DNA of 61,390 nt from Anaerolineaceae bacterium (lineage in GTDB: Bacteria > Chloroflexota > Anaerolineae > Anaerolineales > Anaerolineaceae), in NCBI GenBank assembly GCA_036787065.1, contig DAIQPZ010000001.1, forward strand, positions 1-61,390, read 5' to 3'. The notes beneath the pieces are model-generated. The model was not told the DNA's origin. It ran no database searches and was given only the letters and a program-made list of their open reading frames with translations. Both the position numbers and the translations under genes were made by a program. The stretch's first letter is position 1. Every line of letters starts with the position of its first letter. Shown here piece after piece: positions 27-60,252 of this stretch.

Positions 27-112
27 GTTACCGAATTTGAGGTGTTTGCGGGTGCTTCGCACCCGCAAACACCTCAAATTCGGGTCTTTTTCACAAGAGC
101 TGAGCAGTTACG
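27..112 (+). mobile_element. Family-1 nested-palindrome MITE-like element, copy lacking the left terminal repeat
   Basis: Perfect 25-bp inner stem 31-55 / 59-83 (ccgaatttgaggtgtttgcgggtgc), then gggtctttttcac and right terminal repeat ctgagcagttac ending at 112. This is 5 nt from the stop codon (118-120) of the neighbouring pseudogene. Confidence 0.85.
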
Positions 113-117
113 CTCAA

Positions 118-993
118 TCAAGGTAAATAGCGCCGCACGCTGACCTGGTAGCTTGAATGAAGGACCTCTCCCAATGGATGGATGGTTAATCCTTTGGGGC
201 TGTCTTCATCGATCACCAGCCCATTGCCCCAGACCATAACCACATGCGTGACAGAACCCCCTTTTTTATCGGTCGTAAAGATCAAGTCGCCGCGCTTAAC
301 CGCCCCCCCTGCACCTCAGCCCCCGACAAAGCCTGGTCACCGGCGTCGCGCGGCAGGGTAATACCATAAGCATGGTAAAGACGATACAAAAATCCTGAGC
401 AATCCAAAGAGCCGCTGGGTGAACAAAACCATCACCACCGCAACCTTGTCCGCCTGGCTCCAACCGTTAACCAGGCTGCCCCGGCGCACCCAACCTGGAT
501 AACCACGTGGATCTTTGTGAGATGGCTGCTCAACTGCCACAATGCTTGCCCAATCCCCCACTTCTGCCAGAATTAACACACGCTCGCCCAAAATAAGCTG
601 GGTCTGGCGGCTCCAATAATCCTTCTCGTGAGCCGGTTCATCCCATACATCTAAAACCTCTACGGATACGGTTGCAGGAACTCCCTCCCGAGATAGTTGA
701 GTCATTGTGGGCAATTGGGCCGTTCTCGGTGTTGGAACCGGCGGAGGAAATGGGCCGGTGGGTGTCAAAAATGGCATCATCCTGGCGGGGCTTGCCTGAT
801 TCGTCTGGTTTGCCCGACTCGTCGGAATTGCAGGTCTCATCTGGCTGGCCAAATCTGTCTTCAACGGTTGAGTCAATAAGGGCCGCGGTGTCGATGTGAC
901 CGGGCTGCAGCCAGCTATCAAGGCAGCCCAACAGGCGATCCATAACCAGATCCATCCAAAGCATGTGTGATTTCCTTTTCCGAAAGCTGCCAT
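118..993 (-). pseudogene. NlpC/P60 cell-wall hydrolase lipoprotein with SH3b-like segment, disrupted by two frameshifts
   Basis: Frame A (337-993) gives the lipobox LIAGC and an SH3b-like region. Frame B (286-431) carries the catalytic motif DCSGFLYRLYHAYGITLPRDA. Frame C (118-~309) carries VKRGDLIF..THVVMVWG and the stop. The shifts map to an A4 run (~425-428) and a C7 run (303-309). Confidence 0.7.
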
Positions 994-1029
994 TGCATAG
1001 ATTCTACCGTACTTCTAATCACCGGTCAC
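994..1029 (-). promoter_or_regulatory. Putative leaderless promoter of the NlpC/P60 gene
   Basis: Minus strand reads GTGACC (1024-1029), 17 nt, TAGAAT (1001-1006), 7 nt, ATG (993). No SD. Confidence 0.35.
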
Positions 1030-1048
1030 CTGGCGATCTAGCCTGGCA

Positions 1049-1064
1049 TGCTATAATAACCGTC
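1049..1064 (+). promoter_or_regulatory. Extended -10 promoter, leaderless GTG start of the TrmH-family gene
   Basis: TGcTATAAT at 1049-1057, 7 nt, in-frame GTG at 1065. No SD. Confidence 0.45.
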
Positions 1065-1880: not shown

Positions 1881-3133
1881 AAATCCGATCGATTACATAC
1901 TTTCTAAACCCTGGTTGGCCAATCCAAACCCAACGGATTAATGAAGCGGCCACCTTTATCCATGCTGCCCGCATCGCTTTAACTGAAGCCGGCTTTGAAG
2001 TCCAGTCAACCCGCCTGGCTACGGTACCCTTTTGTGATCTGGTGACCCCAACACAGAGCGTCCAGCTTGCCCAGACATTAGAAAAAATCGCTATCGAGAG
2101 CGGGTTTGGTTATGTAGCCCTTGGACCTGCCCGCCCTGATCACCTGGAGCATTACACCATTATTCCGGATATCCTGGCTGCTACCCAATCGGTGTTTGTC
2201 ACCGGTGAAATTGCCTCAAATCAGGGCATATCGCTGCCATGTGTGCGTGCCTGCGCCGCGGTCATACACCACACGGCGACACTCACCCCTGATGGGTTCG
2301 CCAACCTGCGTTTCGCCGCCCTGGCAAACGTACCACCAGGCGCGCCGTTCTTCCCGGCTGCATACTCAGCGGGGGAAGAGCCTGGATTTGCCCTGGCGAT
2401 CGAATCCGCCGATCTGTCTGTCAGCGCATTTACGAACGCCCACAGCATCACTGAAGCACGCAACACCTTGCGCAACAGTATTGAAACCGCCGCTAAAACC
2501 CTTGCGCCCATCTGCCAGGCGTTATCAGTCGAATATGGCATTCACTTCTTCGGCTTAGATTTTACTCTGGCGCCATACCCGGAAAAAGAGCGTTCAACCG
2601 CAACGGCCATAGAACGGGTCGGAGTCCCCGCCATCGGTCTGGCAGGCAGCCTGGCGGCGGCTGCAATTGTGGCCGAAGCCCTCGACCGCGCCGACTACCC
2701 CAGGACGGGTTTTAATGGGTTGATGCTTCCGGTACTTGAAGATTTCACCCTGGCCGAACGCGTTTCTCAAGGGATCTTAACCATCAATGATCTCCTGCTT
2801 TATTCGACCGTCTGTGGCACTGGCCTGGACACCATCCCCCTGCCAGGCGGAACCAGCATCGGGCATCTCACCGCGATCCTCCTGGATGTGGCGGCCCTGG
2901 CTACCCGTTTGAATAAACCATTGACCGCGCGCTTGATGCCTATCCCTGGTAAAACATCGGGCGATTTGACTAATTTTTCGTTTGCTTATTTTGCCAACAG
3001 CCGGATTCTCCCCCTGCCTGCGGCTACCCTGGAAGGATTGTTGGCCGGCAATGAGACCTTTGAATTAAAACCCCGCCGCCGCCAGGAACCCGCTCAAGAT
3101 AATAATCCAATGGGTAGTGAACCTGAGATTTGA
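1877..3133 (+). CDS. DUF711 / UPF0210 family protein
   Basis: N-terminus MKIRSITYFLNP is typical of UPF0210. The start overlaps the upstream stop (ATGA at 1877-1880). Confidence 0.7.
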   Translation: MKIRSITYFLNPGWPIQTQRINEAATFIHAARIALTEAGFEVQSTRLATVPFCDLVTPTQSVQLAQTLEKIAIESGFGYVALGPARPDHLEHYTIIPDILAATQSVFVTGEIASNQGISLPCVRACAAVIHHTATLTPDGFANLRFAALANVPPGAPFFPAAYSAGEEPGFALAIESADLSVSAFTNAHSITEARNTLRNSIETAAKTLAPICQALSVEYGIHFFGLDFTLAPYPEKERSTATAIERVGVPAIGLAGSLAAAAIVAEALDRADYPRTGFNGLMLPVLEDFTLAERVSQGILTINDLLLYSTVCGTGLDTIPLPGGTSIGHLTAILLDVAALATRLNKPLTARLMPIPGKTSGDLTNFSFAYFANSRILPLPAATLEGLLAGNETFELKPRRRQEPAQDNNPMGSEPEI

Positions 3134-3146
3134 GGTTCTTTCCTCC

Positions 3147-3740
3147 TTACACGGGAGGGGGGCCAGGGAGGATGGGATTGGTTTTCCAATAAGCCATCCC
3201 ATCCGGCTGGCGTGATAAAAGGTGGGTTGAGATCAATTCGCGCCGTAAACTGGCCGTATCTTCATGGTAGCGCGCCAGGATCCCATTGACTTGTTTTTCC
3301 GTGTAGATGATACCAGGATCGAAATCACACATAATCCTGTGCAGAATCACCTGCAACTTTTTTTGTTGGGAAGGGATAGTTTTTAAGTGTCCATCCGGGA
3401 GCAAATAATCGGTTAATACCTTCCGGTCAAATGCTTCGATATCCATTTTTTCGACCAGCGCTGGCAGCGTCCCACGCGCCAGGAGGCGGCGGGCTTTCTC
3501 TTCAATCTGGCCTATCTCCAGTTGGTAGACATTATAATAACTGGTGGCGCGCGCACTGACCAATCCAGCAGCCGCCAGGCGAGATAAGTGGTGCGAAACA
3601 GTTGAAGGGCCCAACCCTAAAATCGCCGCTAACTGCTCCACCGTCAGCGATTGTTGGGCCAACAAACCCACAATTTTTAACCGGTTAGCATCTGCCAATG
3701 CCTTGAAAAAGGTCAACAATTCTTCCGCTTGAGTTTCCAT
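3147..3740 (-). CDS. ArsR-family HTH transcriptional regulator with DUF2087-like C-terminal domain
   Basis: N-terminal FKALADANRLKIVGLL..LTVEQLAAILGLGPSTVSHHLSRL (ArsR wHTH). The C-terminal half resembles DUF2087. Confidence 0.75.
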   Translation of the reverse strand: METQAEELLTFFKALADANRLKIVGLLAQQSLTVEQLAAILGLGPSTVSHHLSRLAAAGLVSARATSYYNVYQLEIGQIEEKARRLLARGTLPALVEKMDIEAFDRKVLTDYLLPDGHLKTIPSQQKKLQVILHRIMCDFDPGIIYTEKQVNGILARYHEDTASLRRELISTHLLSRQPDGMAYWKTNPILPGPPPV

Positions 3741-3748
3741 AAAATAAT

Positions 3749-3794
3749 ACTCCGTAGAATTAATTCGATAAACATCGAATTAATTCTACGGAGT
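3749..3794. promoter_or_regulatory. Perfect 21-bp inverted repeat (4-nt loop) containing two GAATTAATTC palindromes; candidate operator and doxX terminator
   Basis: actccgtagaattaattcgat aaac atcgaattaattctacggagt. On the minus strand it is followed by ATTATTTT and the ATG at 3740. The SD (GGAG) lies in the 3' arm. Confidence 0.6.
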
Positions 3795-3811
3795 TTGCGT
3801 TATCCTGTCAA
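3783..3811 (-). promoter_or_regulatory. Sigma-70-like promoter of the ArsR-family gene, -10 embedded in the palindrome
   Basis: Minus strand reads TTGACA (3806-3811), 17 nt, TAGAAT (3783-3788). Confidence 0.5.
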
Positions 3812-3842
3812 GAGGATTATAGGATGGGGTCTTTTTAGCCGG

Positions 3843-4421: not shown

Positions 4422-4523
4422 GAATTATCTCCTTATCGAATGAAGAATATGAAATTATTGTGACCTTGGGACCAAAATAATCATATCACAATTGGTAATT
4501 TTGAAAAGGTATTAAAGGTAAAT

Positions 4524-4554
4524 AAAACCGAGAATATCGGCTATTCTCGGTTTT
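4524..4554 (-). terminator. Intrinsic terminator downstream of 4674-5438
   Basis: 13-bp stem aaaaccgagaata / tattctcggtttt with a 5-nt loop. T-rich tail on the minus strand. Confidence 0.55.
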
Positions 4555-4568
4555 CTCGTACAAACTTT

Positions 4569-4680
4569 GTAATGGGTCAGCCTTGAAGAGAAAGTTGGCG
4601 AATTCGAGGAATTTGCGTGTGCGAAGCAAGCGCAAATTCCTCGAATTCGGGTCTTTTTCACAGGGGCCCGGTGTCAGCGC
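4569..4680 (+). mobile_element. Family-1 MITE-like element, degenerate terminal repeats
   Basis: Inner stem gaattcgaggaatttgcg / cgcaaattcctcgaattc (4600-4648) with compensated variants. The left end is gtaatgggtcag. The right end overlaps the stop codon of 4674-5438. Confidence 0.8.
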
Positions 4681-5438
4681 ACCTGTTTAAATTTTAACAG
4701 GATTAAGTTCTTTGAGCAGTCGTCACTCGTCTCAAAATACACTTTTGCTGAGAGCTGTAAACCCGCCTGGTCAAGCAGTTGCAGCCAGAGAGTCTTCTTA
4801 GTAGCGATGGGTTTTTCCGCTAATGAAAATTCATACCCGGCTGGGCCGTATTGGAGCGCCGTTCCGGTGAGACTGAGCATATCCAGATACTTATTACCCA
4901 GGACGCCGCCTAATTGGATCGTCACCCCAACGATTGGCGCATTGCGCAGATCCAACACCTGCCCGCCGACGCCCATCCAACTGCAGTCGCTGTCGGGGTG
5001 AGTGATGATGCTGGCGACAAACACGGGCGTACCGACCATTTCATAAGGCATATTTGCTTTAACCGTCACGGGGGTCGACGTGGTTGGCGTATGGAGGGGT
5101 TGGGCGCCAGACGTGTAGGGGATCGAATAGGGTGTTGGGGTGGTTGTTTCCGGATGAGGTGTGCTGGTATCCGTTGGCAATGGAGAAGCGGTCGGGGTCC
5201 AGGTTGGGGGAAACTCTTTAATCGGTTTTTGCGTCGCAGTGGCGGTGGGTAATACAATTTCAGCGGGAAATGAAATGGGCGGGAAAGGATTAATCGGCAA
5301 ATAAGGATCAATATAAATTATTCCAAAATAAGCCACCATCAAGACGATCCCCAATAGGACCAGGGTGGTTAACATATTCCAGACGGATCCCCTGTCATTT
5401 AGGGAAGGGCGTGTTTCACTATCTTCGTAATGCATCAT
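4674..5438 (-). CDS. Hypothetical membrane-anchored protein with Pro/Thr-rich linker
   Basis: One N-terminal TM helix, a PT-rich segment and a C-terminal globular domain. No recognisable family. Confidence 0.5.
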   Translation of the reverse strand: MMHYEDSETRPSLNDRGSVWNMLTTLVLLGIVLMVAYFGIIYIDPYLPINPFPPISFPAEIVLPTATATQKPIKEFPPTWTPTASPLPTDTSTPHPETTTPTPYSIPYTSGAQPLHTPTTSTPVTVKANMPYEMVGTPVFVASIITHPDSDCSWMGVGGQVLDLRNAPIVGVTIQLGGVLGNKYLDMLSLTGTALQYGPAGYEFSLAEKPIATKKTLWLQLLDQAGLQLSAKVYFETSDDCSKNLILLKFKQVR

Positions 5439-5484
5439 CTATTCTCCAGCGACCTATCTTGCGCTTTGGCCTACTATTCGAGAA

Positions 5485-6511: not shown

Positions 6512-6549
6512 ACAAGGCGAGAAATTCTAAACTGATTGTAAGGTAGGGT

Positions 6550-6660
6550 GTTACTCCTCAGGCCTCTGTGAAAAAGACCCAAAATTTAGGGGTTTGCGGG
6601 TACAAAGCATCCGCAAACCCCTAAATTTTGGCAACTTTCTTCGCATGGCTGAGTAGTTAT
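6550..6660 (-). mobile_element. Family-1 MITE-like element, full length
   Basis: Ends gttactcctcag / ctgagtagttat. Inner stem aaaatttaggggtttgcgg / ccgcaaacccctaaatttt (6581-6629). gtgaaaaagaccc comes first, which gives minus orientation. Confidence 0.85.
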
Positions 6661-6741
6661 GATAAAACACCCCGAACGATGATGCCATTCGGGGTGTTTC
6701 AACCTTTATCCAGAGTCATTACTCCGGGTCACACGCCAAAA

Positions 6742-8865: not shown

Positions 8866-8875
8866 TCCGCTTCGA

Positions 8876-14843: not shown

Positions 14844-14863
14844 ATCCAGCACAAAGTAACACG

Positions 14864-14898
14864 GGGTGCTGTACCACTCAGGTACAGCACCCTTTTTT
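14864..14898 (+). terminator. Intrinsic terminator/attenuator after the binding-protein gene
   Basis: 12-bp stem gggtgctgtacc / ggtacagcaccc followed by T6. Confidence 0.7.
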
Positions 14899-19007: not shown

Positions 19008-19100
19008 GTAACTGCTCCGCCATGCGAAGAAAGTTGCCGAATTTGAGGTGTTTGATTGTGCTTCGCACACGCAAACACCTCGAATTCGGGTCTTTTTCAT
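19008..19100 (+). mobile_element. Family-1 MITE-like element, right terminal repeat missing, stem partly decayed
   Basis: gtaactgctc..gaaagttgccgaatttgaggtgtttgattgtgcttcgcacacgcaaacacctcgaattcgggtctttttcat. Confidence 0.8.
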
Positions 19101-19195: not shown

Positions 19196-19210
19196 ACACC
19201 TCAAATTCGG
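19196..19210. repeat. Solo fragment of a family-1 inner arm
   Basis: acacctcaaattcgg, a 15-nt exact match to the consensus right arm, ~95 bp after the truncated copy. Confidence 0.6.
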
Positions 19211-20194: not shown

Positions 20195-21387
20195 CCAAGT
20201 TCCTGCACGTCTTCTGGAATGAATATACCCGGCATGTCTTGCGTAAAAGGTTCCTTTTCGCCCTGTTCAGCGTACCCTTCTTTATCGTGTTTCTCGGCCT
20301 GGTAAGCATTCTGACCGTGGTGCTTTCTACCGATACCTCCCCGATTGGCTACGTCGATCACTCGGGATTACTTGTCTCTCCCAGGCGTGTGACCAGTTCA
20401 ACCGATATCATCATCAAGCCCGTGACGCTCATCTCATACCAGAATGAGGTGGATGCGCGCGCTGCATTGGAAAGTAAGAGAATCCAGGCTTATTATATCC
20501 TGGCGCCCGATTACAAGACGTCATCCCGGTCTGAGCTAATATACTTAAAAGAACCCGATTCGTCCATACAAAACCAGTTCGAGGCATTTTTAAAGACCAA
20601 TCTCTTAACGAGTGAACCCACTCTGGTTGCCAAACGGGTCGACCAGGGAACAATTTTCATCATCCAATCGGCGGACGGCAAACAGGAATTGGATACCTCA
20701 GAATGGTACAACATCCTCCTCCCCATCATTTCCGGTGTTTTGTTTATTTCAATCATCTTTACCAGTGGGGGTTATCTGATGCAGGCGGTGGTTGAAGAGA
20801 AAGAGAACCGAACGATGGAAATGATCATCACGTCCGTCTCACCCGGGCAGTTAATGGCCGGAAAGATCGCAGGGGATGTTGGGGTCGGGCTGACTCAACT
20901 CCTGACCTGGATCATGTTTGGCGCTGTGGCTATCGGGATTGGCGGCCAGTATTTCGGCTGGATATCTCATATTCACGTGGGAATAAACTTCACCCTGCTC
21001 CTGCTGACTCTTTTTCCTTCCTTTGTGCTGATCGCTGCCCTCATGGCGGCAGTTGGCGCGACTGTTACGGAAGCTCACGAAGCCCAATCGATCACGGGGC
21101 TCTTTTCCTTGCCCATCTGGATCCCCTATTGGTTCATTTATCCAATTATGACCAACCCCAACGGGCCACTTGCCATTGGCCTGAGTTTCTTTCCACTCAC
21201 CGCCCCGGTCACTCTCAGTCTGCGCATGGCATTTACCGAAATACCAGTCTGGCAGTTAAGCCTCAATATCATTGTGCTGTTCTTATTCGCGATCGGTGCA
21301 CTCTGGTTGGCTGCGCGCACTTTTCAATTGGGGATGCTGCGTTACGGTAAACGACTTTCCTGGCGGGAAGTGTTTGGTAAGGCTTGA
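20191..21387 (+). CDS. ABC-2 type exporter permease (NatB-like)
   Basis: N-terminal TM helix, large extracytoplasmic loop, C-terminal 5-TM bundle with EEKENRTMEMI. ATGA overlap with the ATPase gene. Confidence 0.75.
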   Translation: MTKFLHVFWNEYTRHVLRKRFLFALFSVPFFIVFLGLVSILTVVLSTDTSPIGYVDHSGLLVSPRRVTSSTDIIIKPVTLISYQNEVDARAALESKRIQAYYILAPDYKTSSRSELIYLKEPDSSIQNQFEAFLKTNLLTSEPTLVAKRVDQGTIFIIQSADGKQELDTSEWYNILLPIISGVLFISIIFTSGGYLMQAVVEEKENRTMEMIITSVSPGQLMAGKIAGDVGVGLTQLLTWIMFGAVAIGIGGQYFGWISHIHVGINFTLLLLTLFPSFVLIAALMAAVGATVTEAHEAQSITGLFSLPIWIPYWFIYPIMTNPNGPLAIGLSFFPLTAPVTLSLRMAFTEIPVWQLSLNIIVLFLFAIGALWLAARTFQLGMLRYGKRLSWREVFGKA

Positions 21388-21392
21388 AAACT

Positions 21393-22628
21393 ATGAATAA
21401 GACTATCCTCGTGTTTAAAAATGAGCTGATCTCAACGATCACCAGCCGGTCTTTCATCGTCACCTTGTTACTGGTGCCGGGAGTTTCTGCCATCATGATG
21501 GTGGTCATATCCATCCTGGGGCAGAATACTTCCCAGGTCGTATCCCAGGTGGTGTTCTCATCCGCACCCAAAACCATCACTGAAGGGTATGTCGATCAAT
21601 CCGGATTGATTAAAACCCTCCCGGATGGGATCAATGCCAGCCGGTTGATCGCTTATCCAGATGAGACGCATGCCCGGCAGGCCCTGGCTCAAAAGGCTAT
21701 TTCAGGCTTTTACGTAATTCCTCAAGATTACATCAGCTCTGGAAAGGTGCTTTATATACGTAACGATTTCAATCCTCTGGCAGGACTCGATCAAACCCGT
21801 ATAATTGAAGAGGTGATTCATTTCAATCTTTTAGGTGGGAATGAATCCCTGGTCAGGAAGCTGAATGCGCCGATGCAATTGAACCGGGTCAGTTTGCTAC
21901 CCCAGACGTCACAACGCGATCAAGGTAGTTTTCTCACTTTTTTCCTGCCGTATACGGTTACCATGATTTTTTATATCGTCATCCTGACCGCTGCCAGCCT
22001 GATGCTGAACAGTGTGACCGCTGAAAAACAAAACCGGATCATGGAGATTTTGATGGTATCCATGACTCCCACTCAGATGCTGACCGGCAAGATCATTGCG
22101 CTTGGCCTGGTCGGGCTCATCCAGACGATCGTATGGACTGGGGCTGGATATGGCCTGTTAATCTTAAGCGGACAGAAATTAAACCTTTCGCCGGCATTTA
22201 GCCTGCCGCCATCCATCCTTTTATGGGGAATGATATTTTTCCTCCTCGGGTATGCCGTATATGCCGGGCTAATGGCTGGGGTTGGCGCATTAGTGCCCAA
22301 CCTGCGTGAGGCTTCTCAGGCCACCACCATTATGATCATCCCAATGATCATTCCATTGATATTGATTTCGACCTTGATTAATGCTCCCAACGGGGTCATC
22401 TCTATGGTTCTCAGCCTTTTTCCCCTGACTGCACCGGTAGCCATGATGGCCCGCCTATCCGCTGGGGTGGTTCCAATTTGGGAGATACTCCTATCGATCG
22501 GACTTCTGGCAATCACCGCCGTGTTGATCATCCGCTCGGTAGCCGGGATGTTCCGCGCGCAAACTTTATTATCCGGCCAGGCCTTCAATTTCAAAGTGTT
22601 CTTTAAGGCCTTAACCGGCATGAACTAA
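21393..22628 (+). CDS. ABC-2 type exporter permease (NatB-like), second copy
   Basis: Same topology, AEKQNRIMEIL. An alternative TTG start at 21384 overlaps the upstream stop. Confidence 0.75.
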   Translation: MNKTILVFKNELISTITSRSFIVTLLLVPGVSAIMMVVISILGQNTSQVVSQVVFSSAPKTITEGYVDQSGLIKTLPDGINASRLIAYPDETHARQALAQKAISGFYVIPQDYISSGKVLYIRNDFNPLAGLDQTRIIEEVIHFNLLGGNESLVRKLNAPMQLNRVSLLPQTSQRDQGSFLTFFLPYTVTMIFYIVILTAASLMLNSVTAEKQNRIMEILMVSMTPTQMLTGKIIALGLVGLIQTIVWTGAGYGLLILSGQKLNLSPAFSLPPSILLWGMIFFLLGYAVYAGLMAGVGALVPNLREASQATTIMIIPMIIPLILISTLINAPNGVISMVLSLFPLTAPVAMMARLSAGVVPIWEILLSIGLLAITAVLIIRSVAGMFRAQTLLSGQAFNFKVFFKALTGMN

Positions 22629-22640
22629 AGCCCCGGTCAG

Positions 22641-22745
22641 GTTAATCCTTCAGTTAAAGTTGCCGAATTTGAGGTGTTTGCGCTTGCCAAGTAAGCGCCT
22701 ACCCCTCAAATTCAGGTCTTTTTTTACACAAGCCTGAGCAATTAC
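22641..22745 (+). mobile_element. Family-1 MITE-like element, full length, decayed stem
   Basis: Ends gttaatccttcag / ctgagcaattac. The inner arms have 3 mismatches. Confidence 0.8.
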
Positions 22746-24056: not shown

Positions 24057-24085
24057 GGGGGATTTTTAAGATAGAATAAAGATAG

Positions 24086-24192
24086 ATCCTCAGACTTGAG
24101 GTGACAATCGCCGAACTTCAGGTGATTGCGGATGCGAAGAACCCGCAATCACCTGAAATTCCGACCTTTTTCACGCGAGCCAGAGCAGTAAA
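24086..24192 (+). mobile_element. Family-1 MITE-like element, degenerate ends
   Basis: Inner stem gaacttcaggtgattgcgg / ccgcaatcacctgaaattc (24113-24161) with compensated variants, then cctttttcac and ccagagcagtaa. Confidence 0.8.
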
Positions 24193-31145: not shown

Positions 31146-31255
31146 GTTACTGCTCAGGTATACGTGAATAAGACCCGAATTTGAGGTGTTTACAGGTGCT
31201 CAGCACCCGCAAACACCTCAAATTCTGGGATTCTTTTCTCATGGCTGAGCAGAAC
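31146..31255 (-). mobile_element. Family-1 MITE-like element, full length
   Basis: Ends gttactgctcag / ctgagcagaac. The right end abuts the stop codon (31256-31258) of the YvcK-like gene. Confidence 0.85.
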
Positions 31256-33694: not shown

Positions 33695-33805
33695 GTAACT
33701 GCTCAGGCTAGAGTGAAAAAGACCCGAATTTGATGTGTTTGCGGGTGCGAAGCATCCGCAAACACATCAAATTCGGGAACTTTCACCCCAAGGCTGAGTA
33801 GTTAC
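33695..33805 (-). mobile_element. Family-1 MITE-like element, full length
   Basis: Ends gtaactgctcag / ctgagtagttac. Inner stem gaatttgatgtgtttgcgg / ccgcaaacacatcaaattc (33726-33774). Confidence 0.9.
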
Positions 33806-33836
33806 AAGAACCCTGTCTTATTTATAGGAGGTTGTC

Positions 33837-34386
33837 ATGGAACCGCTGAAATTGCCCGGGCCAAAAGCGAGGGCCATCGTCGAACGTGATCAGGCTGTGA
33901 TCTCTCCTTCCTACCCCAGGGGCTACCCATTCGTCATGGATCATGGCCGCGGTACAGAAGTTTGGGACATGGACGGCAATCGCTTTCTCGATTTTTCCGC
34001 AGGTATCGCGGTTGCATCAACGGGGCACAGTCACCCTGAAGCTGATCGAAGAACAGTACATGAAGAATGCCGCAGAAGTTGGCCGCTATACCCTGGATGC
34101 ACTCCAAGAAATCATGATGCGCCATCCAATGATTGGTCAGGTACGTGGTATTGGCTTGATGATTGGTGTAGAATTTGTTAAGGACCGCCTTACCAAAGAA
34201 CCAGCGGTCCATTTTAGAGATGACATTGTGGATCATGCGTTTGAACGGGGTTTACTCACCCTCGGCTGTGGTAAAAGCACCATTCGCATCTCCCCTCCTC
34301 TGAGCACAAGTCGGTCAGAAATAGACGAAGGCTTGCAAATTCTCGAAGAAGCAATCGCTGTGACGGAGAAATTGGCTATCCATTGA
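33837..34386 (+). pseudogene. Class-III (GabT-like) aminotransferase remnant with internal deletion
   Basis: An N-terminal ~68 aa (..FLDFSAGIAVASTGHSHPE) joins out of frame at ~34036-34046 to a C-terminal ~115 aa (..QVRGIGLMIGVEF..TIRISPPL). The PLP-lysine core (~250 aa) is absent. Confidence 0.75.
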
Positions 34387-36031: not shown

Positions 36032-36139
36032 CTAACTGCTCAGACCTTCGTAAAACGCCGAATTTGAGGTGTTTGCGCTTTCAAAGCAAGCGCAAACACC
36101 TCAAATTCAGGTCTCTTTCAAGAGATTCTGAGTAGTTAC
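36032..36139 (+). mobile_element. Family-1 MITE-like element, full length
   Basis: Ends ctaactgctcag / ctgagtagttac. Inner stem with a gcgctt..aagcgc upper part. Confidence 0.85.
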
Positions 36140-37539: not shown

Positions 37540-37571
37540 AAAAAGGAGCTGGAAAACACCAGCTCCTTTTT
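37540..37571. terminator. Bidirectional intrinsic terminator between convergent genes
   Basis: 13-bp stem aaaaaggagctgg / ccagctccttttt, with A/T tracts on both sides. Confidence 0.7.
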
Positions 37572-38252: not shown

Positions 38253-38304
38253 GACTGTACTCCTCTAAACAGGTAATTTGGCTCTCTGGTTATTTGCTAT
38301 ATAC

Positions 38305-38365
38305 CGCGCGTACGCGTGCTCAAACCCCAAAATGCGGACCATTCCACAGGAAATCCTGGAGAACC
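38305..38365 (-). repeat. Family-2 element, half copy
   Basis: cgcgcgtacgcgtgctcaaaccccaaaatgcggaccattccacaggaaatcctggagaacc matches the right half of 50827-50938. Confidence 0.7.
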
Positions 38366-38700
38366 AATTTAAATTGTTAATGCTTAGAGGTATAATATAG
38401 CAGATCTTTGAGATTTTGTGTGACTGATTTTTGGGTGCGGCGGATAGATTTTTGTAACTATTCAGGTTATAATGCCAACCCTAACATCGTTGAAGAGAAG
38501 TTGTATGCTTACGCCGTCATTAATTTATCGACCAGCAGCGGCTTATTTGCCGGTAAGCCGCCCGGCATGATCGGGTCATCCAGGTAGTTGGTTGATTTTT
38601 TATCAGCCCAGATTTATTTCAGCCAACCCTGCTATCATGTTTTTAAGTCATTCATCCAAGAAACGGATTTTACAGCCGGAAGTTCATTCAGGTCTGGATT

Positions 38701-39690
38701 ATGTTAATCCCGCTTAAAGCAGGAGAAGTTCTCCGGGGGCGTTATAAGATCCGCCGGATTATTGGCCAGGGTGGCATGGGAAGCATTTACCTGGCGGATG
38801 ATCTGCGCCTTGAAGGCCGCCTGTGTGCATTGAAAGAAGTGGAACAAGACCGTACACTTTCTGCTGATCTTCAAAAAGAAGCGCGAGACCAATTTTTGCG
38901 TGAGGCCACCGTCCTGGCCAGGTTGGACCACCCCAATCTGCCCAAAGTATCTGACTTTTTCTCGATCGGCGGGCGTGATTATCTGATTATGGATTTTGTA
39001 CCCGGCAAAGACCTGCGCACTTTGATGTCTGAGGCTCACCAAAACAATATTTTTTTGAATGAAAACGACGTTTTAAATTGGGCCAGCCAGTTAGCCGACG
39101 CGCTCAGCTATCTTCACAGCCAGGAACCGCCCATCCTCCACCGCGATATTAAACCCAGTAATTTAAAAGTGACTCCCAGTGGATTATTGAAACTGGTCGA
39201 TTTTGGTCTGGTGAAAGTTTTGGCGCCTGGCGAAGTGACCGTCACGATTCTACAAGGGCAAGGCACCGCGCTTTACACGCCCCTCGAACAATATGGAGGA
39301 GACAGTGGACACACGGACGTCCGGAGTGACATTTATGCCTTCGGCTCAACCCTCTACCACCTCTTCACCAACCGGCCTCCCGCCGACGCAAAAGAAAGAT
39401 TTCTACACCCACAAAGCCTGATCCCGCTGCGAGAAATCAACCCGGCCATCTCTCAAAGGGTTGAGCGAGCCGTCCTGTGGGCCATGAGCCTGCATCCCGA
39501 TGAACGGCCCCAAACCATCGAAATTTTACGCCAGGCGCTCCTTGGAGACCGGCCAATTTTTATCCAACCCAGACCGCTGACCCGTAAACCTGGCTTGCGG
39601 GATTACTTAAGATCCACACCTGATAAATTTTTAGTCTGGACCACCATTGGATTAATTTTAATCAGCCTGGTTACTACGCTAATGAAATAA
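38701..39690 (+). CDS. Ser/Thr protein kinase, C-terminally tail-anchored
   Basis: GQGGMGSIY, HRDIKPSNL, DFGL. A single C-terminal TM helix ends at the stop. Confidence 0.85.
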   Translation: MLIPLKAGEVLRGRYKIRRIIGQGGMGSIYLADDLRLEGRLCALKEVEQDRTLSADLQKEARDQFLREATVLARLDHPNLPKVSDFFSIGGRDYLIMDFVPGKDLRTLMSEAHQNNIFLNENDVLNWASQLADALSYLHSQEPPILHRDIKPSNLKVTPSGLLKLVDFGLVKVLAPGEVTVTILQGQGTALYTPLEQYGGDSGHTDVRSDIYAFGSTLYHLFTNRPPADAKERFLHPQSLIPLREINPAISQRVERAVLWAMSLHPDERPQTIEILRQALLGDRPIFIQPRPLTRKPGLRDYLRSTPDKFLVWTTIGLILISLVTTLMK

Positions 39691-39790
39691 AATTAAAGAC
39701 CCGAATTTGAAGTGTTTGCCGGTGCTTCGCACCGGCAAACACTTCAAATTCGGAGACTCTCTTCTACCGGTGATCGCGGCTGAGCATTGG
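39670..39790 (-). mobile_element. Family-1 MITE-like element filling the kinase/GH3 convergent spacer; degenerate ends lie inside both coding 3' ends
   Basis: Perfect core hairpin 39701-39725 / 39729-39753. gttactacgct (39670-39680) and ctgagcattgg (39780-39790) resemble the terminal repeats. Confidence 0.7.
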
Positions 39791-42580
39791 CGTATAGTGC
39801 CAGATAATTGCCGCGACCCAGCCTGATAGAATCCCCATCAATGTGCCCATCAGTATCCCGTTAGTCCCCGCGCCTTGTATCCACACGGTTCCCCCAGGCA
39901 TGCCCGCTGCCAGGTAAAGGTAGCCAGCTAAACCACCTAAAACCGCGCATAAACTCCAACGCATTCCCCAACGCAGCGAACCCCATAACCAGAATCCCAG
40001 GCCGTAGGCCAAACCGGCTGCCATAGCAATCAACAGGATGGATAAGGCCCATTCGCTTAAGAATGGGCGGCCAGGCCGGGGAAGGATCGGGGTCGGTGCG
40101 GTTGTGGGTGTCAACGTTAATGTAGGCGTGGTAGTGGATGTGGGTGTGGGTGTAATGGATAGAGCCTGGGTTGGAAAGATAACCAGCGTACTGCCCGTAT
40201 CGGTCACATTTAAACCGAGCACATCCGACTTTGTGGCTTTTTCGCTGGTAGCTTTGATCACCAACGAACCAGGTTTCTCGATCCGGTAAGTAGCATGCGC
40301 GATTCCAACCTGAGTTTCCGATTCCACCTGTTGGACAGGGCCAGTTTCTCCACCCGTCTGGAATAAAAAATATACCACGGTTTGATTGGGCACCAGGTTG
40401 TGGTTTTGATCGTAGATTGGACCCGCTTTGAGTGGGATCGAATCACCAATTTTATAGGTTGGTACGGGGGTTGGTTGGGGTGTTGAGGTTCCAACTACCC
40501 TGGGCTTTTCAGGTATATCAAAAGCCAGTGGAATCACCTGAGTGGGATCCGCGGATAAGGCCACACCAATATCATAGCCTACCCCAGGAACAGATACAGG
40601 CAGTGCACCGGCCGGGACAATTTCATGGAAAAGCACTTTGGCCGCCACGTCAATAAATTGGGGCGCTTTACTATATAACCCATAATAAGCAGTAATCTTA
40701 GAAATATCGGTTGCATCCAAATTATAAGGTGCGCCAAAGGCAAATATAATCACCTTTTTATTATTTAAAAGGTCGGGTCTGGCGCTGAGCAGGTGTTTGT
40801 ATGCCAGGGTTTCTGGTTTATCCGCAATAGGATTGAGAATCGCGAATACAACCCAGGTAGCATTTTGCAGATCGGTTTCAATGTTTGCTGGCGCTTTGAC
40901 CTTATTCAGAAAATTATCGACATCAGCCAGAGAATATGAAGTGAGACGGTCAGAATTTACCTGCCTTGATTGTGACGGACCATAAAATTTCAATACCGAA
41001 TTTTGCAGTGCGTCGACGGTTAATGGAGTCTGGTCCTGGCATTGGTTACACTGCTTTCCGGTCTGAACATCCGTGAGGAATACAATTCTGTCGCGAGCAT
41101 CTGGCGCCTTGGGCAAGACGCTATCCAGTTCTGTCGCTGAAGGGCTGATGACAGTGACCGATTGGCGGGCGACATCCGATACAACCAGCTTCGACTTATC
41201 CAATTGTAGATTCGTCAGGTTGCTATCCGATGACACGACATTTTTAAGGCTGAACGGACTGTTATACAAACGGAGCTTCAAAGTAATAATGCGCACCAGA
41301 GAAGCATCCACCTGCTGTTGGAACACCGCATCTGCCTTATATTTTTTAACAAAGAAATCGAGCGTGTTCTTGATCGTTGTATAACTATCCGCATCGCCAT
41401 TCGATACGAAATTATCCGCATAAAGCAGATCGTTGCCGGCTAAAAAAGCGTTTAATGCGACATTACTCGCATTAAAGCTCTTACCAGAAGGATCATAAAA
41501 TAATCGTAAGGCGCGGCTGCCTAAATCATCACTGACCGTCAACCCGCCTTTTTGCCTCCAGGTAGCAAATTGTGGGAGAGCCATTAAGCTGCTCATAGCG
41601 GCCGGGTCGGAACTGACAGGCTTAATGGAAGGACTGATATTGCCCTGAAAACCCTGATAACGGATATGGGTTACCAACAATCCATCTGTAGTCGACTCGA
41701 CCGATTGGGCATTCCCGGTGACTGCAGCGAACGGGACTAATTCATTTTTCTTCAAATCATCTATAGTCTTTCTCACAGTGGACACTTCATCGTCAGGCAG
41801 GCGGTCAGCCGACCCGCTTCCCGGGAAGAATTTTGAAATCACCGCCAGGCGATTATCGCCGCCCTGATGCAGGCCGGTGATAAAAGCGCGGCCCATTTCA
41901 CCCACCCAATAAGCGTTACCCCCGAAACTGCGCGTCCCCAAATTCTTACTGCTTTCCGTATGAGTTGTGTCCAAAACATCCAATGATGGCCCAAAGTAAA
42001 GGTTAAAACCCAGGTCTTGAAGCTCACTCCCCATAATTACACCAACCTGGGTTGCCAGATCTGGTTTCCAGGTCGCTCCAAGCGCCATTTCATCTGGAAG
42101 CATGGTGGCGCCATTGAAGATCTGGTCGGTTGGGTACCCATCTCCCTCTTGGGATAAACCCACAAATAATGGGATATAAGCGGGTTGGTAGGTAGTCCCG
42201 GTATTTGGAACCGTCGCAAAGCGGATGGCTGCGTCGCCTTCAATACTTTGCATTTGACCGATTAACTGGTGGACTCCTTCGGGTGTGCGTCCTGCCGGTG
42301 CAAAATTATCGTTGGCAGAAGATAAAACAACACCCCCGATGTGGTAATTCGTAATCAGGTCATAGATCTGGCTCGTGCTGCTGACATCCGTCCCCTTAAA
42401 TGTGATCAGAAAAAGCTGGCCGATCTTTTCCTCGGGGATGAGGGTTTTAATCAAACTTTGCGCCTGCAGCACCGCCGGATCGGTCTGTTGTAAATCTTCA
42501 GCCTGGGCATTCCAGGATAACAGGCTCGACGCCAAGATCACGACCAACAAAAAGAAATTACGAAGCCTGTTCAACAACAA
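39764..42580 (-). CDS. Glycoside hydrolase family 3 (NagZ/beta-hexosaminidase-like), large, C-terminal multi-TM anchor
   Basis: KFFPGSGSADR, VSDDLGSRAL, signal peptide, PT-rich linker and 4 C-terminal TM helices. Three consecutive TTG codons sit at the start. Confidence 0.75.
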   Translation of the reverse strand: MLLNRLRNFFLLVVILASSLLSWNAQAEDLQQTDPAVLQAQSLIKTLIPEEKIGQLFLITFKGTDVSSTSQIYDLITNYHIGGVVLSSANDNFAPAGRTPEGVHQLIGQMQSIEGDAAIRFATVPNTGTTYQPAYIPLFVGLSQEGDGYPTDQIFNGATMLPDEMALGATWKPDLATQVGVIMGSELQDLGFNLYFGPSLDVLDTTHTESSKNLGTRSFGGNAYWVGEMGRAFITGLHQGGDNRLAVISKFFPGSGSADRLPDDEVSTVRKTIDDLKKNELVPFAAVTGNAQSVESTTDGLLVTHIRYQGFQGNISPSIKPVSSDPAAMSSLMALPQFATWRQKGGLTVSDDLGSRALRLFYDPSGKSFNASNVALNAFLAGNDLLYADNFVSNGDADSYTTIKNTLDFFVKKYKADAVFQQQVDASLVRIITLKLRLYNSPFSLKNVVSSDSNLTNLQLDKSKLVVSDVARQSVTVISPSATELDSVLPKAPDARDRIVFLTDVQTGKQCNQCQDQTPLTVDALQNSVLKFYGPSQSRQVNSDRLTSYSLADVDNFLNKVKAPANIETDLQNATWVVFAILNPIADKPETLAYKHLLSARPDLLNNKKVIIFAFGAPYNLDATDISKITAYYGLYSKAPQFIDVAAKVLFHEIVPAGALPVSVPGVGYDIGVALSADPTQVIPLAFDIPEKPRVVGTSTPQPTPVPTYKIGDSIPLKAGPIYDQNHNLVPNQTVVYFLFQTGGETGPVQQVESETQVGIAHATYRIEKPGSLVIKATSEKATKSDVLGLNVTDTGSTLVIFPTQALSITPTPTSTTTPTLTLTPTTAPTPILPRPGRPFLSEWALSILLIAMAAGLAYGLGFWLWGSLRWGMRWSLCAVLGGLAGYLYLAAGMPGGTVWIQGAGTNGILMGTLMGILSGWVAAIIWHYTPMLSRDHR

Positions 42581-42595
42581 TACTCCTGAAATAGT

Positions 42596-42706
42596 GTAAC
42601 TGCTCAGACATGTAAAGAAAGTTGCCGAATTTGAGGTGTTTGCGGGTGCTTCGCACCCGCAAACACCTCAAATTCGGGTCTTTTTCACGGGGCTCTGAGC
42701 AGTTAC
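42596..42706 (+). mobile_element. Family-1 MITE-like element, canonical 111-bp copy with 8-bp target-site duplication
   Basis: Perfect ends gtaactgctcag / ctgagcagttac. The flanking direct repeat gaaatagt is at 42588-42595 and 42707-42714. Confidence 0.95.
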
Positions 42707-42746
42707 GAAATAGTTATAGTCGCAATCAATCCAGTAATAATGGAAC

Positions 42747-50826: not shown

Positions 50827-50938
50827 GGATCATTGGGGATTTCCGTGGTGAAACCCCGCATTTTGGGGAGTGGGCGGGTGCTTCGCACCCGCCCACTCCC
50901 CAAAATGCGGACCATTCCACGGGAAATCCTGGAGAACC
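50827..50938 (-). mobile_element. Family-2 nested-palindrome MITE-like element
   Basis: Inner stem ccgcattttggggagtgggcgggtg / cacccgcccactccccaaaatgcgg (50856-50910). Outer repeats ggatttccgtgg / ccacgggaaatcc. The apex gcgggtgcttcgcacccgc is identical to family 1. Confidence 0.85.
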
Positions 50939-50977
50939 AAAACCTTAAGTCTAAATTTTAATGTATGGAGTAAGGGT

Positions 50978-51190
50978 ATGGCTGAACGTTTTGTTGGGAC
51001 CGTTAAGTGGTTTAACGCCTCCAAAGGTTATGGTTTCATCGGACGTGAAGGCGGCGAAGATGTCTTTGTTCATTTCTCTGCCATTCAAATGGAAGGTTAT
51101 AAACGTCTTAAAGAAGGCCAACAAGTGGAATTTTCGATTGAAAATGGTCCCAAAGGCCTGCAGGCCGCTGATGTTATGATTCCTGAGTAA
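50978..51190 (+). CDS. Cold-shock protein (CspA family)
   Basis: [29 protein letters not shown], 70 aa. The ORF track start 50870 is an extension through the repeat. Confidence 0.93.
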
Positions 51191-51211
51191 TCATTTTATC
51201 CAAAACTAACC

Positions 51212-51241
51212 AAAAGAGCCCCTGAATTCAGCGGCTCTTTT
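51212..51241 (+). terminator. Intrinsic terminator of the csp gene
   Basis: 9-bp stem aaaagagcc / ggctctttt with a T-rich tail. Confidence 0.6.
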
Positions 51242-51274
51242 GCATTTAATCACATTCCTGGTCACCATCTGGGT

Positions 51275-51308
51275 CCGGCAACTTTCTCTGCTTGGCTGAG
51301 TAGTAACG
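51275..51308 (-). repeat. Family-1 terminal fragment (one end only)
   Basis: ccggcaactttctctgcttggctgagtagtaacg matches the ..ggcaactttcttcgcatggctgagtagttat end of 6550-6660. It lies 4 nt from the stop of 51313-52467. Confidence 0.7.
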
Positions 51309-52467: not shown

Positions 52468-52498
52468 GAGTCACAGTTCTTCTTTCATTGCGAAATTT

Positions 52499-52606
52499 GG
52501 TTCTCAAGAATTTCCCGTGGAGTGGGCCGTATTTTGGGGTATGAGCGCAGGTACGCGCGCTCATACCCCAAAATACGGGATTCACCCCGGCAATTCCTAA
52601 AGACCC
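52499..52606 (+). mobile_element. Family-2 MITE-like element with 8-bp target-site duplication
   Basis: ggttctcaagaatttcccgtgg..ccgtattttggggtatgagcgc..gcgctcataccccaaaatacgg..agaccc. The direct repeat cgaaattt is at 52491-52498 and 52607-52614. Confidence 0.85.
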
Positions 52607-52696
52607 CGAAATTTAATGGTATTTCAGTTCTCGATTATAATATACTCATAAGCATTGGTGGATTTTTTAGCCATTCCTTCAAACAACAAATCACTG

Positions 52697-53618: not shown

Positions 53619-53624
53619 TTAAAT

Positions 53625-54482: not shown

Positions 54483-54521
54483 ACCCAGGTCCCATACCAG
54501 TTTGTTTGAATATTACCCTTT

Positions 54522-55583: not shown

Positions 55584-55590
55584 AGATTGC

Positions 55591-57903: not shown

Positions 57904-58639
57904 TGGCCTGCATCACGATCCGGCAGACGGCGCGGTCTGTCCCTGTTGAAGACAGGTCCCCGGTCTCTTCCAGGCAGAAAAGGCGGCCAAAACTAACCTG
58001 AAGGCTGCTATCCGCCTCAAAAACGCCTACAGGTAAAATGGGCAAACCCAGGCGAGCCAGATATTGAATAAAACGGCCCGAGCCACTTGGCGGCTCACCC
58101 AATTTCCCGGTTAAAATATCGCGCCCTTCGGGGGCAAGACCAATCACCGCATGTGGGCGCCGCCGCACAACCGTCACCACCTGGCGGACCGCCAGGGCTC
58201 GCTCTTCTGCTTCGGAGGGGTTCGGCGGCATTGCTGGCATATTGCTGAAACCATATACCCGGCCAATCGCATGCAATAACCATTGACTCATGGGCTTTAA
58301 AACCTTTTCCCGGGGCTGCCCCGGATAGGTAAACGCTCCGGTCATGATCCAAAAGATATCGAGTGGCACGGCTGCGCTGATGGCCAGAGACGTCCAAAAG
58401 GCATTATAACCAGGCCGGAAATAATGGTTAAGCGTGATCAGACACGGGCCTGTAACCGGTACATACTCTTGTCCATGGATAACCAGGTCTGGACTCAAGC
58501 CTTTGAGCGCTTCCACGGCATCCTTCTTGAAATCACGCTTCTGTTTGAAAAGAACAGCCCAAACCAGGTTTAAAACCAGACCAGAGGATAATGTATATGT
58601 GGGGAAAATCAATCTTTCGCTTGACTTCACTTTAATCAC
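57860..58639 (-). CDS. Putative LPLAT/PlsC-like acyltransferase (divergent)
   Basis: LNHYFRPG (degenerate HX4D) and LAPEGRD (PEG motif). Weak call. Confidence 0.4.
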   Translation of the reverse strand: MIKVKSSERLIFPTYTLSSGLVLNLVWAVLFKQKRDFKKDAVEALKGLSPDLVIHGQEYVPVTGPCLITLNHYFRPGYNAFWTSLAISAAVPLDIFWIMTGAFTYPGQPREKVLKPMSQWLLHAIGRVYGFSNMPAMPPNPSEAEERALAVRQVVTVVRRRPHAVIGLAPEGRDILTGKLGEPPSGSGRFIQYLARLGLPILPVGVFEADSSLQVSFGRLFCLEETGDLSSTGTDRAVCRIVMQAIARQLPDEMRGIYA

Positions 58640-58711
58640 GACCTATACTGATTTAAAGTAGACACAAAGTAGGGTCTGGCTATTCAGCCTGAGCTTTATC
58701 TTAGCATATTC

Positions 58712-58822
58712 GTAACTACTCAGCCATGGTAAGAAAGTTGCCGAATTTTGAGTGTTTGCGGGTGCGGAGCACCCGCAAACACTCAAAATTCGGGTCTTTT
58801 TCACACGGGTCTGAGCAGTTAC
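58712..58822 (+). mobile_element. Family-1 MITE-like element, 111-bp copy with 8-bp target-site duplication
   Basis: Ends gtaactactcag / ctgagcagttac. The flanking direct repeat gcatattc is at 58704-58711 and 58823-58830. Confidence 0.95.
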
Positions 58823-58998
58823 GCATATTCTATTCAAAGGGCTTAATTGATTTTGATTAGCCAGTGCTTAACCGAATTCAATCAAACTGGCATTAAACAT
58901 GTACGCTGATAAGGGAGGTTATCAGACCGATAATTTTTAATGCCGATTGGCAATCAACCGGCATTCCCAGTTTATTCATTCCGATCAGGAGTTTTCAA

Positions 58999-60156
58999 AT
59001 GTTATACCACCCTTCAATTGAATGTATCCTGCCCCCTTACATGCTCAAGCAGATTGTCGATCAGGGCTCCTCAGAACAACGCGAGTGGGCTGTGCGTACT
59101 CTGCGCCTTTCAGATCAAATACGGTCCCAACGCCTGGCCTTGGCGTCCACTTTGATGGCGCCTGAGCAGCACGTCGTGGCAGGCGGGGTCAAACGGCGCA
59201 CGGTTTATGATGCTCAGCAAGGTTCTACCCTGCCCGGATCAATCGTTCGCAATGAAGGCGATCTCGACGGCAGTGACCCGGCAGTCAACGAAGCCTACAC
59301 CGGCGCCGGGGCAACCTATGACCTCTATTGGGAAATATACCAGCGTAACTCGATTGATGATAAGGGCATGGCGATCGAGTCTTCTGTCCATTACCAAAAG
59401 AACTATGATAACGCCTTCTGGAACGGCAGCCAGATGGTTTATGGCGACGGCGATTCAGGACTTACCCCAGGACAGCAGCTCTTCAACCGTTTTACGATTT
59501 CCATCGATATCATCGGGCACGAACTGACCCACGGCGTCACCCAATTTACCGCCAACCTGACCTACCAGGATGAGCCAGGCGCATTGAACGAATCGATCTC
59601 CGACGTTTTTGGTTCTCTGGTTAAACAGCGCCAACTTAGCCAGACCGCAGCCGAGGCTGATTGGATTATTGGGCAGGGATTATTCACTCCTAACGTCAAA
59701 GGCGTGGGTATCCGCTCGATGAAAGCGCCTGGGACGGCTTATGACGATCCGGTCCTTGGCAAGGACCCTCAGCCGGCCAACATGAAAGATTACAATCACC
59801 TTCCGCCAACAGATGATTCGGGGGGCGTGCATATTAATTCGGGTATCCCGAATTTTGCTTTCTATTCAACCGCGCTCGCCATCGGCGGAAATGCCTGGGA
59901 AAAAGCCGGACGGATCTGGTATAAGACCCTGATAGAACAACTCAAACCTGCTTCAAACTTTCAAGATACCGCAAATCTGACCCTGACGGTGGCAGGTGAG
60001 CTTTATGGCAAGAACAGCCTGGAACAGCAGGCCGTTGTTAAGGGTTGGGCCGCCGCCGGTATTACCGCAGCGGAGATCGATTTGAATCCCGGTACCAACA
60101 CAACAGGCTGCCAGAATTTGCTCCGCGGTTTATTTAAAATAAATGCTCAGCCGTAA
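58999..60156 (+). CDS. M4 (thermolysin-family) protealysin-like metalloprotease, no signal peptide
   Basis: HELTHGVT (HExxH), GALNESISDVFG, and a short propeptide with ILPPYML (PPL-type motif). CAGGAG SD. Confidence 0.85.
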   Translation: MLYHPSIECILPPYMLKQIVDQGSSEQREWAVRTLRLSDQIRSQRLALASTLMAPEQHVVAGGVKRRTVYDAQQGSTLPGSIVRNEGDLDGSDPAVNEAYTGAGATYDLYWEIYQRNSIDDKGMAIESSVHYQKNYDNAFWNGSQMVYGDGDSGLTPGQQLFNRFTISIDIIGHELTHGVTQFTANLTYQDEPGALNESISDVFGSLVKQRQLSQTAAEADWIIGQGLFTPNVKGVGIRSMKAPGTAYDDPVLGKDPQPANMKDYNHLPPTDDSGGVHINSGIPNFAFYSTALAIGGNAWEKAGRIWYKTLIEQLKPASNFQDTANLTLTVAGELYGKNSLEQQAVVKGWAAAGITAAEIDLNPGTNTTGCQNLLRGLFKINAQP

Positions 60157-60252
60157 AAAAATAGAGAGACCCCGAATTTGAGGTGTTTGCGGGTGCGAAG
60201 CACCGCAAACACCTCAAATTCGGGTTATTATCAAACAGGTCCAGTAGACCCG
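60143..60252 (-). mobile_element. Family-1 MITE-like element between the protease and inhibitor genes; its left end overlaps the protease 3' end
   Basis: ataaatgctcagccgtaa (terminal-repeat-like, 10/12) encodes ..INAQP-stop. The core hairpin is at 60168-60226. The degenerate right end is ccagtagac. Confidence 0.75.

Follow-up and report, generated by a model that had tools for sequence, protein, structure and literature searches.

What kind of element is a nested palindrome of about 111 bp that recurs throughout a stretch of Anaerolineaceae DNA, and what keeps its long inner stem paired? The stretch in question comprises 61,390 nt of contig DAIQPZ010000001.1 (Anaerolineaceae bacterium) and was analyzed as a whole; it is referred to below as the window, coordinates are those of the window unless another locus is named, and individual copies are called by their first position. 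[quoted passage not shown] The current analysis makes it very probable that these repeats, designated family 1, represent a MITE family whose ends are mobilized by an enzyme of the IS66/ISBst12 type and whose inner hairpin is kept after insertion mainly by template switching.

Anatomy of the repeat and duplication of 8-bp targets

The 24-nt arm of the inner stem has 19 matches with at most three mismatches in the window, compared with 0 expected, and the 12-nt end has 20 matches with at most two mismatches, compared with 2.4 expected; repeat finding grouped 10 to 14 copies of 62 to 112 nt. A covariance model of the copies, a check that had been proposed together with the list of loci, was trained on 10 copies and recovered all 13 listed loci with E values from 1e-13 to 1e-33. 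It additionally picked up a solo-end fragment at 51275-51307 (E 0.024) and a diverged relative at 50829-50938. The original count is hence borne out by the arm and end matches and by the model, and the 13 copies in 61 kb correspond to about one per 4.7 kb. Two isolated 12-mers at 38454-38465 and 27270-27281, one intergenic and one intragenic, also resemble the element end with at most two mismatches, but they cannot be called remnants because 2.4 chance matches are expected at this stringency.

The element is 111 bp long and bounded by terminal inverted repeats (TIRs) of 12-14 nt, GTAACTGCTCAG at one end and GTAACTACTCAG at the other. Extended by the next bases, the consensus reads GTAACTGCTCAG(C/G)C for the one end and GTAACTACTCAG(C/G)C for the other, and both conform to GTAACTRCTCAG(S)C. 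Two dissimilar spacers of about 17 nt each separate the ends from the core, a perfect hairpin of 24-26 bp with the apex GCTTCGC or GCGAAGC. In a pooled set of 90 elements (see below), 70 measure 110-119 bp, which is too short for any gene, and the element is non-coding. The nested hairpin of a representative copy has a predicted folding energy of -72.8 kcal/mol as RNA (z -12.5) and of -46 kcal/mol as DNA (z -14). With respect to the common architecture ascribed to all 13 loci, the inner hairpin was confirmed, whereas both ends are intact (at most three mismatches each) in only about six copies, i.e., 6550, 31146, 33695, 36032, 42596, and 58712. The remaining ones are decayed or truncated; copy 27 is devoid of the left end and copy 19008 of the right end. 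The statement that almost every spacer longer than 100 bp is occupied proved to be overstated, since about 12 of about 21 such spacers hold a copy, and the supposed left TIR of the copy previously placed at 39670 had to be withdrawn, because positions 39670-39690 are C-terminal coding sequence of a protein kinase that is conserved in a sister species.

The most direct evidence for mobility comes from the flanks. Two young copies with perfect ends, 42596-42706 (+), whose hairpin is also perfect, and 58712-58822 (+), which resides in a divergent promoter spacer, are bordered by exact 8-bp direct repeats, namely, GAAATAGT at 42588-42595 and 42707-42714 and GCATATTC at 58704-58711 and 58823-58830, respectively. 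Among the two-ended elements of the window and the first 30 related loci (n = 30), the flanks are identical at 8/8 positions in nine and at 7/8 in eight (17/30 with at least 7/8), and testing of 30 elements revealed such matches in the 8-bp register only. The analysis was then based on the window and ~0.84 Mb of related contigs, which after addition of 119 metagenome loci yielded the 90 unique elements of the pooled set. In this set, 46 elements have 8/8 and 20 have 7/8 matching flanks (66/90 with at least 7/8), compared with 0.04% and 0.35%, respectively (0.4% together), in mismatched-flank controls, and positions 2-7 of the duplicated targets are A/T rich (73% A+T versus a background of 46%). 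Derivatives of 56-80 bp that retain the ends without the hairpin still carry 8-bp duplications (L004:7778, L013:7291, and L024:4744), and therefore the ends are the recognized and mobilized unit, whereas the hairpin is cargo.

Comparison with a sister species provided the corresponding empty sites. Locus L298 of GCA_936417505.1, whose RecJ protein is 70% identical, is syntenic gene for gene with window positions 35.9-57.9 kb, but it lacks the copies at 36032-36139 (+, full-length), 39691-39785 (-), and 42596-42706 as well as the fragment at 51275-51307 (-), a solo end consisting of spacer and terminal repeat downstream of the csp terminator. The L298 spacers orthologous to copies 39691 and 42596 measure 4 bp and 57 bp, respectively, and contain no element. 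Conversely, a copy specific to L298 (L298:19063-19172) has CCTCTAAG on both flanks, whereas the orthologous site of the window shows a single, uninterrupted CCTCTAAG within an otherwise conserved promoter-like stretch, i.e., a textbook filled-versus-empty site. Insertions thus differ between sister species, and the elements duplicate A/T-rich 8-bp targets. Every copy examined is fixed within the species, whose contigs carry an identical copy set; a search for empty sites among same-species contigs found none, and only the sister species showed them. Taken together, the 8-bp duplications, the TIRs, the non-coding length, the dispersal, and the filled and empty orthologous sites support the MITE interpretation, and the element displays every testable feature by which a 2024 review characterizes MITEs (PMC10969869).

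Maintenance of the inner hairpin

Pairing statistics from 46 aligned copies gave a value of 95.9% for the inner helix of 24 pairs, 21 of which show changes on both sides, but of only 70.3% for the helix of 12 pairs between the two ends. After insertion, the ends decay while the inner palindrome stays paired. With the asymmetric spacers as reference, the apex occurs as GCTTCGC or GCGAAGC in both orientations (27 to 22). Among DNA mini-hairpins, d(GCGAAGC) is notably stable.

Closely related strains document how the stem changes. Copy 60139-60251 (-) has its loop inverted in a 99.1%-identical strain, from CGAAG to CTTCG, and its arms have become symmetric there through deletion of 1 nt. For copy 6550-6660 (-), all polymorphisms within 340 bp fall in the stem, two of them at paired positions, and the pair 6587/6623 is T-A, C.A, or C-G depending on the strain. 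A variant at 31176 restores arm symmetry of copy 31146-31256 (-) in three of seven strains, and the paired positions 19044/19082 of copy 19008-19100 (+) also differ among strains. The share of variable sites is 1.9% for the elements, 0.7% for the remaining intergenic DNA, and 0.35% for coding sequences (p = 0.003), corresponding to a 2.8-fold excess of the elements over other intergenic DNA. Template switching during replication is known to homogenize the arms of inverted repeats and to invert their spacers (PMC8604942, PMC8794818). High variability, kept pairing, and loop flips are the pattern that this process produces, and template switching between the arms is therefore proposed as the main cause of the apparent covariation, with direct examples at the strain level; selection on the RNA is not required, and selection on one RNA strand is the less likely cause of the kept pairing. 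Arm homogenization and loop inversion among 99%-identical strains are shared with the hairpin template-switch mutations described as quasipalindrome correction and spacer inversion, which are a mutational process acting on the element and not a family containing it. The loop flips and paired changes offer a clean natural example of template switching that keeps a long stem perfect, and they caution that compensated stems need not mean selection on RNA.

The strongest competing explanation regards the repeats primarily as host-selected hairpins, acting as bidirectional intrinsic terminators or mRNA 3'-end stabilizers, whose conservation and placement reflect selection on the RNA instead of mobility. 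The gene context is in line with this idea: 32 of 43 copies lie between co-directional genes, seven between convergent and four between divergent ones, so that 39 are located downstream of at least one gene. The fold is very stable, the inner stem persists although the ends decay, T-rich tracts follow it on either strand (53-87% T at positions 4-7), three copies satisfy a simple terminator scan, and a terminator-like MITE, SPRITE, provides a precedent (PMC10969869). However, the orientation of the asymmetric arms with respect to transcription is unbiased (15 to 17), and so is that of the loop (18 to 14). Only 39% of the arms are followed by at least five T in 9 nt, and many lineages carry just TT or TTT. 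Moreover, the young copy 58712 occupies a divergent promoter spacer, and copies 6550 and 4569 are situated beside native terminators. The elements are also more variable among strains than other intergenic DNA, which runs counter to host selection, and the strain differences resemble templated events and not independent compensations. Host selection as the primary explanation is accordingly improbable.

A terminator or stabilizer function that the copies might exert in addition, as proposed for SPRITE, is a separate matter: the hairpin and its flanking T-rich tracts may speculatively serve as a bidirectional terminator or 3'-end stabilizer, a role that we regard as possible but doubtful, given the random orientation, the small share of arms with long T-tracts, and the native terminators beside copies 6550 and 4569. 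SPRITE resembles family 1 in being a small dispersed repeat with a core similar to an intrinsic terminator (PMC10969869), but its sequence and host are unrelated, and in family 1 the T-tracts are short in many copies and terminator activity is putative. Ordinary short hairpins followed by a T-run are found at 6661-6700, 4524-4554, 14863-14893, 37540-37571, and 51215-51243, two of them directly beside copies 6550 and 4569, so that intrinsic terminators are in use in this genome without involvement of the MITEs.

Candidate mobilizing enzyme, known families, and distribution

Members of the IS66 family of insertion sequences (ISs) are characterized by ends starting with GTAAGCG and by 8-bp direct repeats (PMC11946415). 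ISDge4, a single-ORF element (449 aa) of the ISBst12 group of this family, transposes in Deinococcus geothermalis; its printed ends are GTAACTGCTCAGCA and GTGACTACTCAGCA, and its 8-bp direct repeat is CCTCGATG (PMC12898284). The ends of family 1 are identical to these printed ends at 12/12 and 11/12 positions, and family 1 and ISDge4 agree even in the G/A difference that sets one end apart from the other. With ends starting GTAAC and a duplication of 8 bp, family 1 exhibits the IS66 hallmarks of a GTAA start and an 8-bp repeat. From the ISDge4-like ends and the 8-bp duplication, we infer that an IS66-family DDE transposase of the ISBst12 group acts in trans to move family 1. Such an enzyme would act on the terminal repeats and insert the element into A/T-rich 8-bp targets, which would be duplicated in the process; the terminal repeats would then decay, while hairpin-templated strand switching during replication would homogenize the arms, flip the loop, and keep the inner palindrome paired. 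ISDge4 itself, which shares the near-identical ends and the 8-bp direct repeat with family 1 (PMC12898284), is an autonomous element of another phylum with a 449-aa transposase, whereas family 1 is 111 bp long, non-coding, and equipped with a long internal hairpin.

Several observations weigh against this assignment. Only GTAA of the generic IS66 end GTAAGCG is shared with family 1, and copy 33695-33805 (-) has perfect ends yet no target-site duplication. Neither an autonomous element nor a transposase with family-1 ends was detected in the window and the ~0.9 Mb of related sequence searched; the ISBst12 link is therefore drawn from end identity to an element published for another phylum. The proposed search for an autonomous IS with the family ends has thus yielded a match of the ends, to ISDge4, but no such element in the sequence covered, and no ISDge4-like gene was found in the Anaerolineae sequence examined. 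For the window, scans of essentially all ORFs with Pfam and NCBIfam agree with the earlier statement that no transposase, integrase, or RAYT ORF is present; its genes comprise housekeeping functions, among them groES/groEL, recJ, alr, tgt, gap, and pgk. The window, 30 genome loci, and 119 metagenome loci were screened for paired ends at a distance of 0.3-6 kb whose flanks match, which revealed no autonomous element. An all-against-all comparison aimed at internal repeats of the IS type returned solely a two-component-system operon, generic GTRA...TYAC pairs with an 8-bp duplication were not found, and none of the 120 viral-contig matches to the exact 14-mer end combined an end pair with matching flanks. 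Two candidates were rejected: L238:1903-3276 consists of two separate elements around a non-transposase gene of 409 aa, and the half copies in L025 and L030 enclose a STAS-domain gene and are not the ends of a longer element. Since the Deinococcus IS is experimentally active, the identity of the ends makes mobilization directly testable.

With respect to known repeats, family 1 shares with Correia, RUP, Nezha, and ERIC, i.e., with established prokaryotic MITEs, a length below 500 bp, terminal inverted repeats, direct repeats that border the young copies, intergenic targets rich in A/T, predicted hairpins that are stable, and a high copy number (PMC10969869, PMC3184786). None of these four families shows sequence similarity to family 1, whose duplication measures 8 bp. 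Correia and RUP elements duplicate TA. An identity with ERIC, REP, or BIME was rejected, since E. coli genomes contain nothing similar. Rfam returned only far-sub-threshold matches to microRNA hairpins, and blastn of the element against E. coli genomes, plasmids, and phages gave no match, which agrees with the earlier impression that the consensus is not that of a named family. In the literature, no paper on MITEs of Chloroflexi or Anaerolineae was found, and the 2024 review on prokaryotic MITEs mentions neither Chloroflexota nor IS66 (PMC10969869). Family 1 is therefore a new, unnamed MITE family, yet one of a well-known kind, because its ends match those of ISDge4 and hence of a known IS group.

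An alternative origin as REP/REPIN-type palindromes, spread by a RAYT enzyme (an IS200/IS605-like tyrosine transposase), would account for the long hairpin doublets of ~100-110 bp, the intergenic location, the abundance, and the compensated changes in co-varying arms. REPs, however, are RAYT dependent and devoid of target-site duplications, and movement of the RAYT/IS200 type is not known to generate any. The exact 8-bp duplications of family 1, the end match to a DDE-type IS, and the lack of a Y1 transposase or RAYT in the window make this origin highly improbable.

The exact 20-mer of the stem was searched among 185,579 species representatives (one genome each) and is confined to metagenome-assembled genomes (MAGs) of Chloroflexota/Anaerolineae. 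OY969938.1, a closed 4.87-Mb "Chloroflexia" genome, accounts for 25 of the 20-mer stretches, and four further MAGs labelled Chloroflexota, Anaerolineaceae, or Anaerolinea contain it; in all, at least five other species representatives harbor the family. The window belongs to none of these genomes. At least 119 metagenome contigs with the family are among the matches listed, and 234 kb of sequence from related genomes contained about 50 copies. The species of the window is represented by contigs in several metagenomes and in the MAG GCA_036382215.1, and the named RecJ homologues of the window protein stem from Anaerolineaceae, Anaerolineales, Chloroflexi, or Brevefilum. The host belongs to the uncultured Anaerolineae. 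About 22 copies without the search seed occur in 200 kb of OY969938.1 loci, and extrapolation from these loci and from the 13 copies per 61 kb of the window suggests several hundred copies per genome. The family is thus dispersed and not confined to one locus, and a local segmental duplication, for which the density in the window alone could be adduced, can be dismissed as extremely improbable in view of flanks that are unrelated apart from the 8-bp duplications, copies in other species and hundreds of contigs, and insertion sites that differ between syntenic species. For the Anaerolineae, which are abundant but poorly studied and known mostly from metagenomes, this adds a defined high-copy-number mobile element with probably hundreds of copies per genome. 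Such repeats break short-read assemblies, alter the 3' ends of genes, and can seed rearrangements. The metagenome contigs L162, L164, L159, L179, L197, and L253 start or stop inside a copy, consistent with this effect on assembly.

Individual copies and related elements

For three genes of the window, a copy provides the stop codon. Copy 39691, between convergent genes, has kept a single end, which encodes the last codons and the stop codon of a GH3 hydrolase gene (39764-42580, -), and an M4 peptidase gene owes its final codons and its stop (60154-60156) to the old copy 60139. Copy 4569-4680 (+), also old, with decayed ends and several compensated changes in the inner stem, overlaps the stop codon of the gene 4674-5438 (-), and the full-length copy 31146 abuts the stop codon of cofD (31256-32587, -). 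Copy 33695 adjoins the remnant of a class-III aminotransferase gene: a 147-aa ORF within 33806-34386, located ~140 bp from the copy, aligns only to the last 100 positions of the corresponding profile and hence represents a truncated gene. Because perfect ends without a duplication are found next to this truncated gene, an element-associated rearrangement or deletion is suggested at this site.

Of the other copies, 6550 is full-length and directly follows the terminator hairpin of groEL. Copy 27-111 (+) is truncated on the left, a T-run replacing the left end and spacer, and retains the inner hairpin, the right spacer, and a perfect right end. Copies 22636-22745 (+), with a decayed left and a good right end, and 24082-24192 (+), which is old, has decayed ends, and shows compensated variants in its stem, are fixed in all strains seen. 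The fragment at 19196-19210 (+) corresponds exactly to 15 nt of the right arm of the stem, ACACCTCAAATTCGG.

A second MITE-like family of palindromes is present at 38300-38367, 50829-50945, and 52497-52610. Its ends are different and longer (GGTTCTCCAGGATTTCCCGTGG...), its core hairpin is ~72-76% similar to that of family 1, and the full copy at 52497-52610 is flanked by an 8-bp duplication, CGAAATTT. All three copies are located upstream of plus-strand genes, one of them within the csp leader, and all three are missing from the orthologous L298 spacers, while L298 has a copy of its own at ~21330-21435. The sole Rfam match at gathering score, to the cspA thermoregulator (50862-51243; 82.9 bits versus a cut-off of 78), touches this family, as the first helix of the model falls on the second-family hairpin. 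The alignment is driven by the cold-shock coding sequence and the terminator and not by the 5' leader, and the region is probably not a genuine thermosensor of the enterobacterial type.

Variants of family 1 itself comprise a subfamily in OY969938.1 that shares the ends and the 8-bp duplications but has another core hairpin (GGGGTGTTTTTATTGTTTTTCGCGTG-CGAAG-...), followed by T-runs on both sides; its members are L024:3299-3410, L022:4529-4639, L019:7121-7233, L002:6043-6153, and L005:2616-2717. The smallest form, at L238:3262-3287, is a 26-bp element of the two ends only (GTAACTGCCCAG GG TTGAGCAGTTAC) that overlaps the end of the 409-aa ORF 2039-3268, and two such ends-only elements were counted in the pooled set. 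A composite of ~196 bp at L015:5160-5355 combines a family-1 core and a neighboring second-type core within one pair of ends.

Related cores with a stem of 24-26 bp and a GCTTCGC/GCGAAGC apex are thus part of at least two MITE families whose ends are unrelated, and the ends of family 1 are common to several core types, the cores being kept perfectly paired while the ends decay. A more far-reaching model would regard the core as a self-homogenizing palindrome module that was repeatedly captured by MITEs of the Anaerolineae, that is used by the host as a mobile bidirectional terminator or 3'-end stabilizer, and whose population is serviced by a rare, horizontally acquired transposase of the ISBst12 type shared with Deinococcus. 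In its entirety, this model is rather unlikely.

Finally, a perfect palindrome with a 20-bp stem at 3750-3793 (CTCCGTAGAATTAATTCGAT...) is unrelated to the MITEs. It lies upstream of a gene for an ArsR-type regulator (3147-3740, -) and could function as an operator or as a bidirectional terminator.

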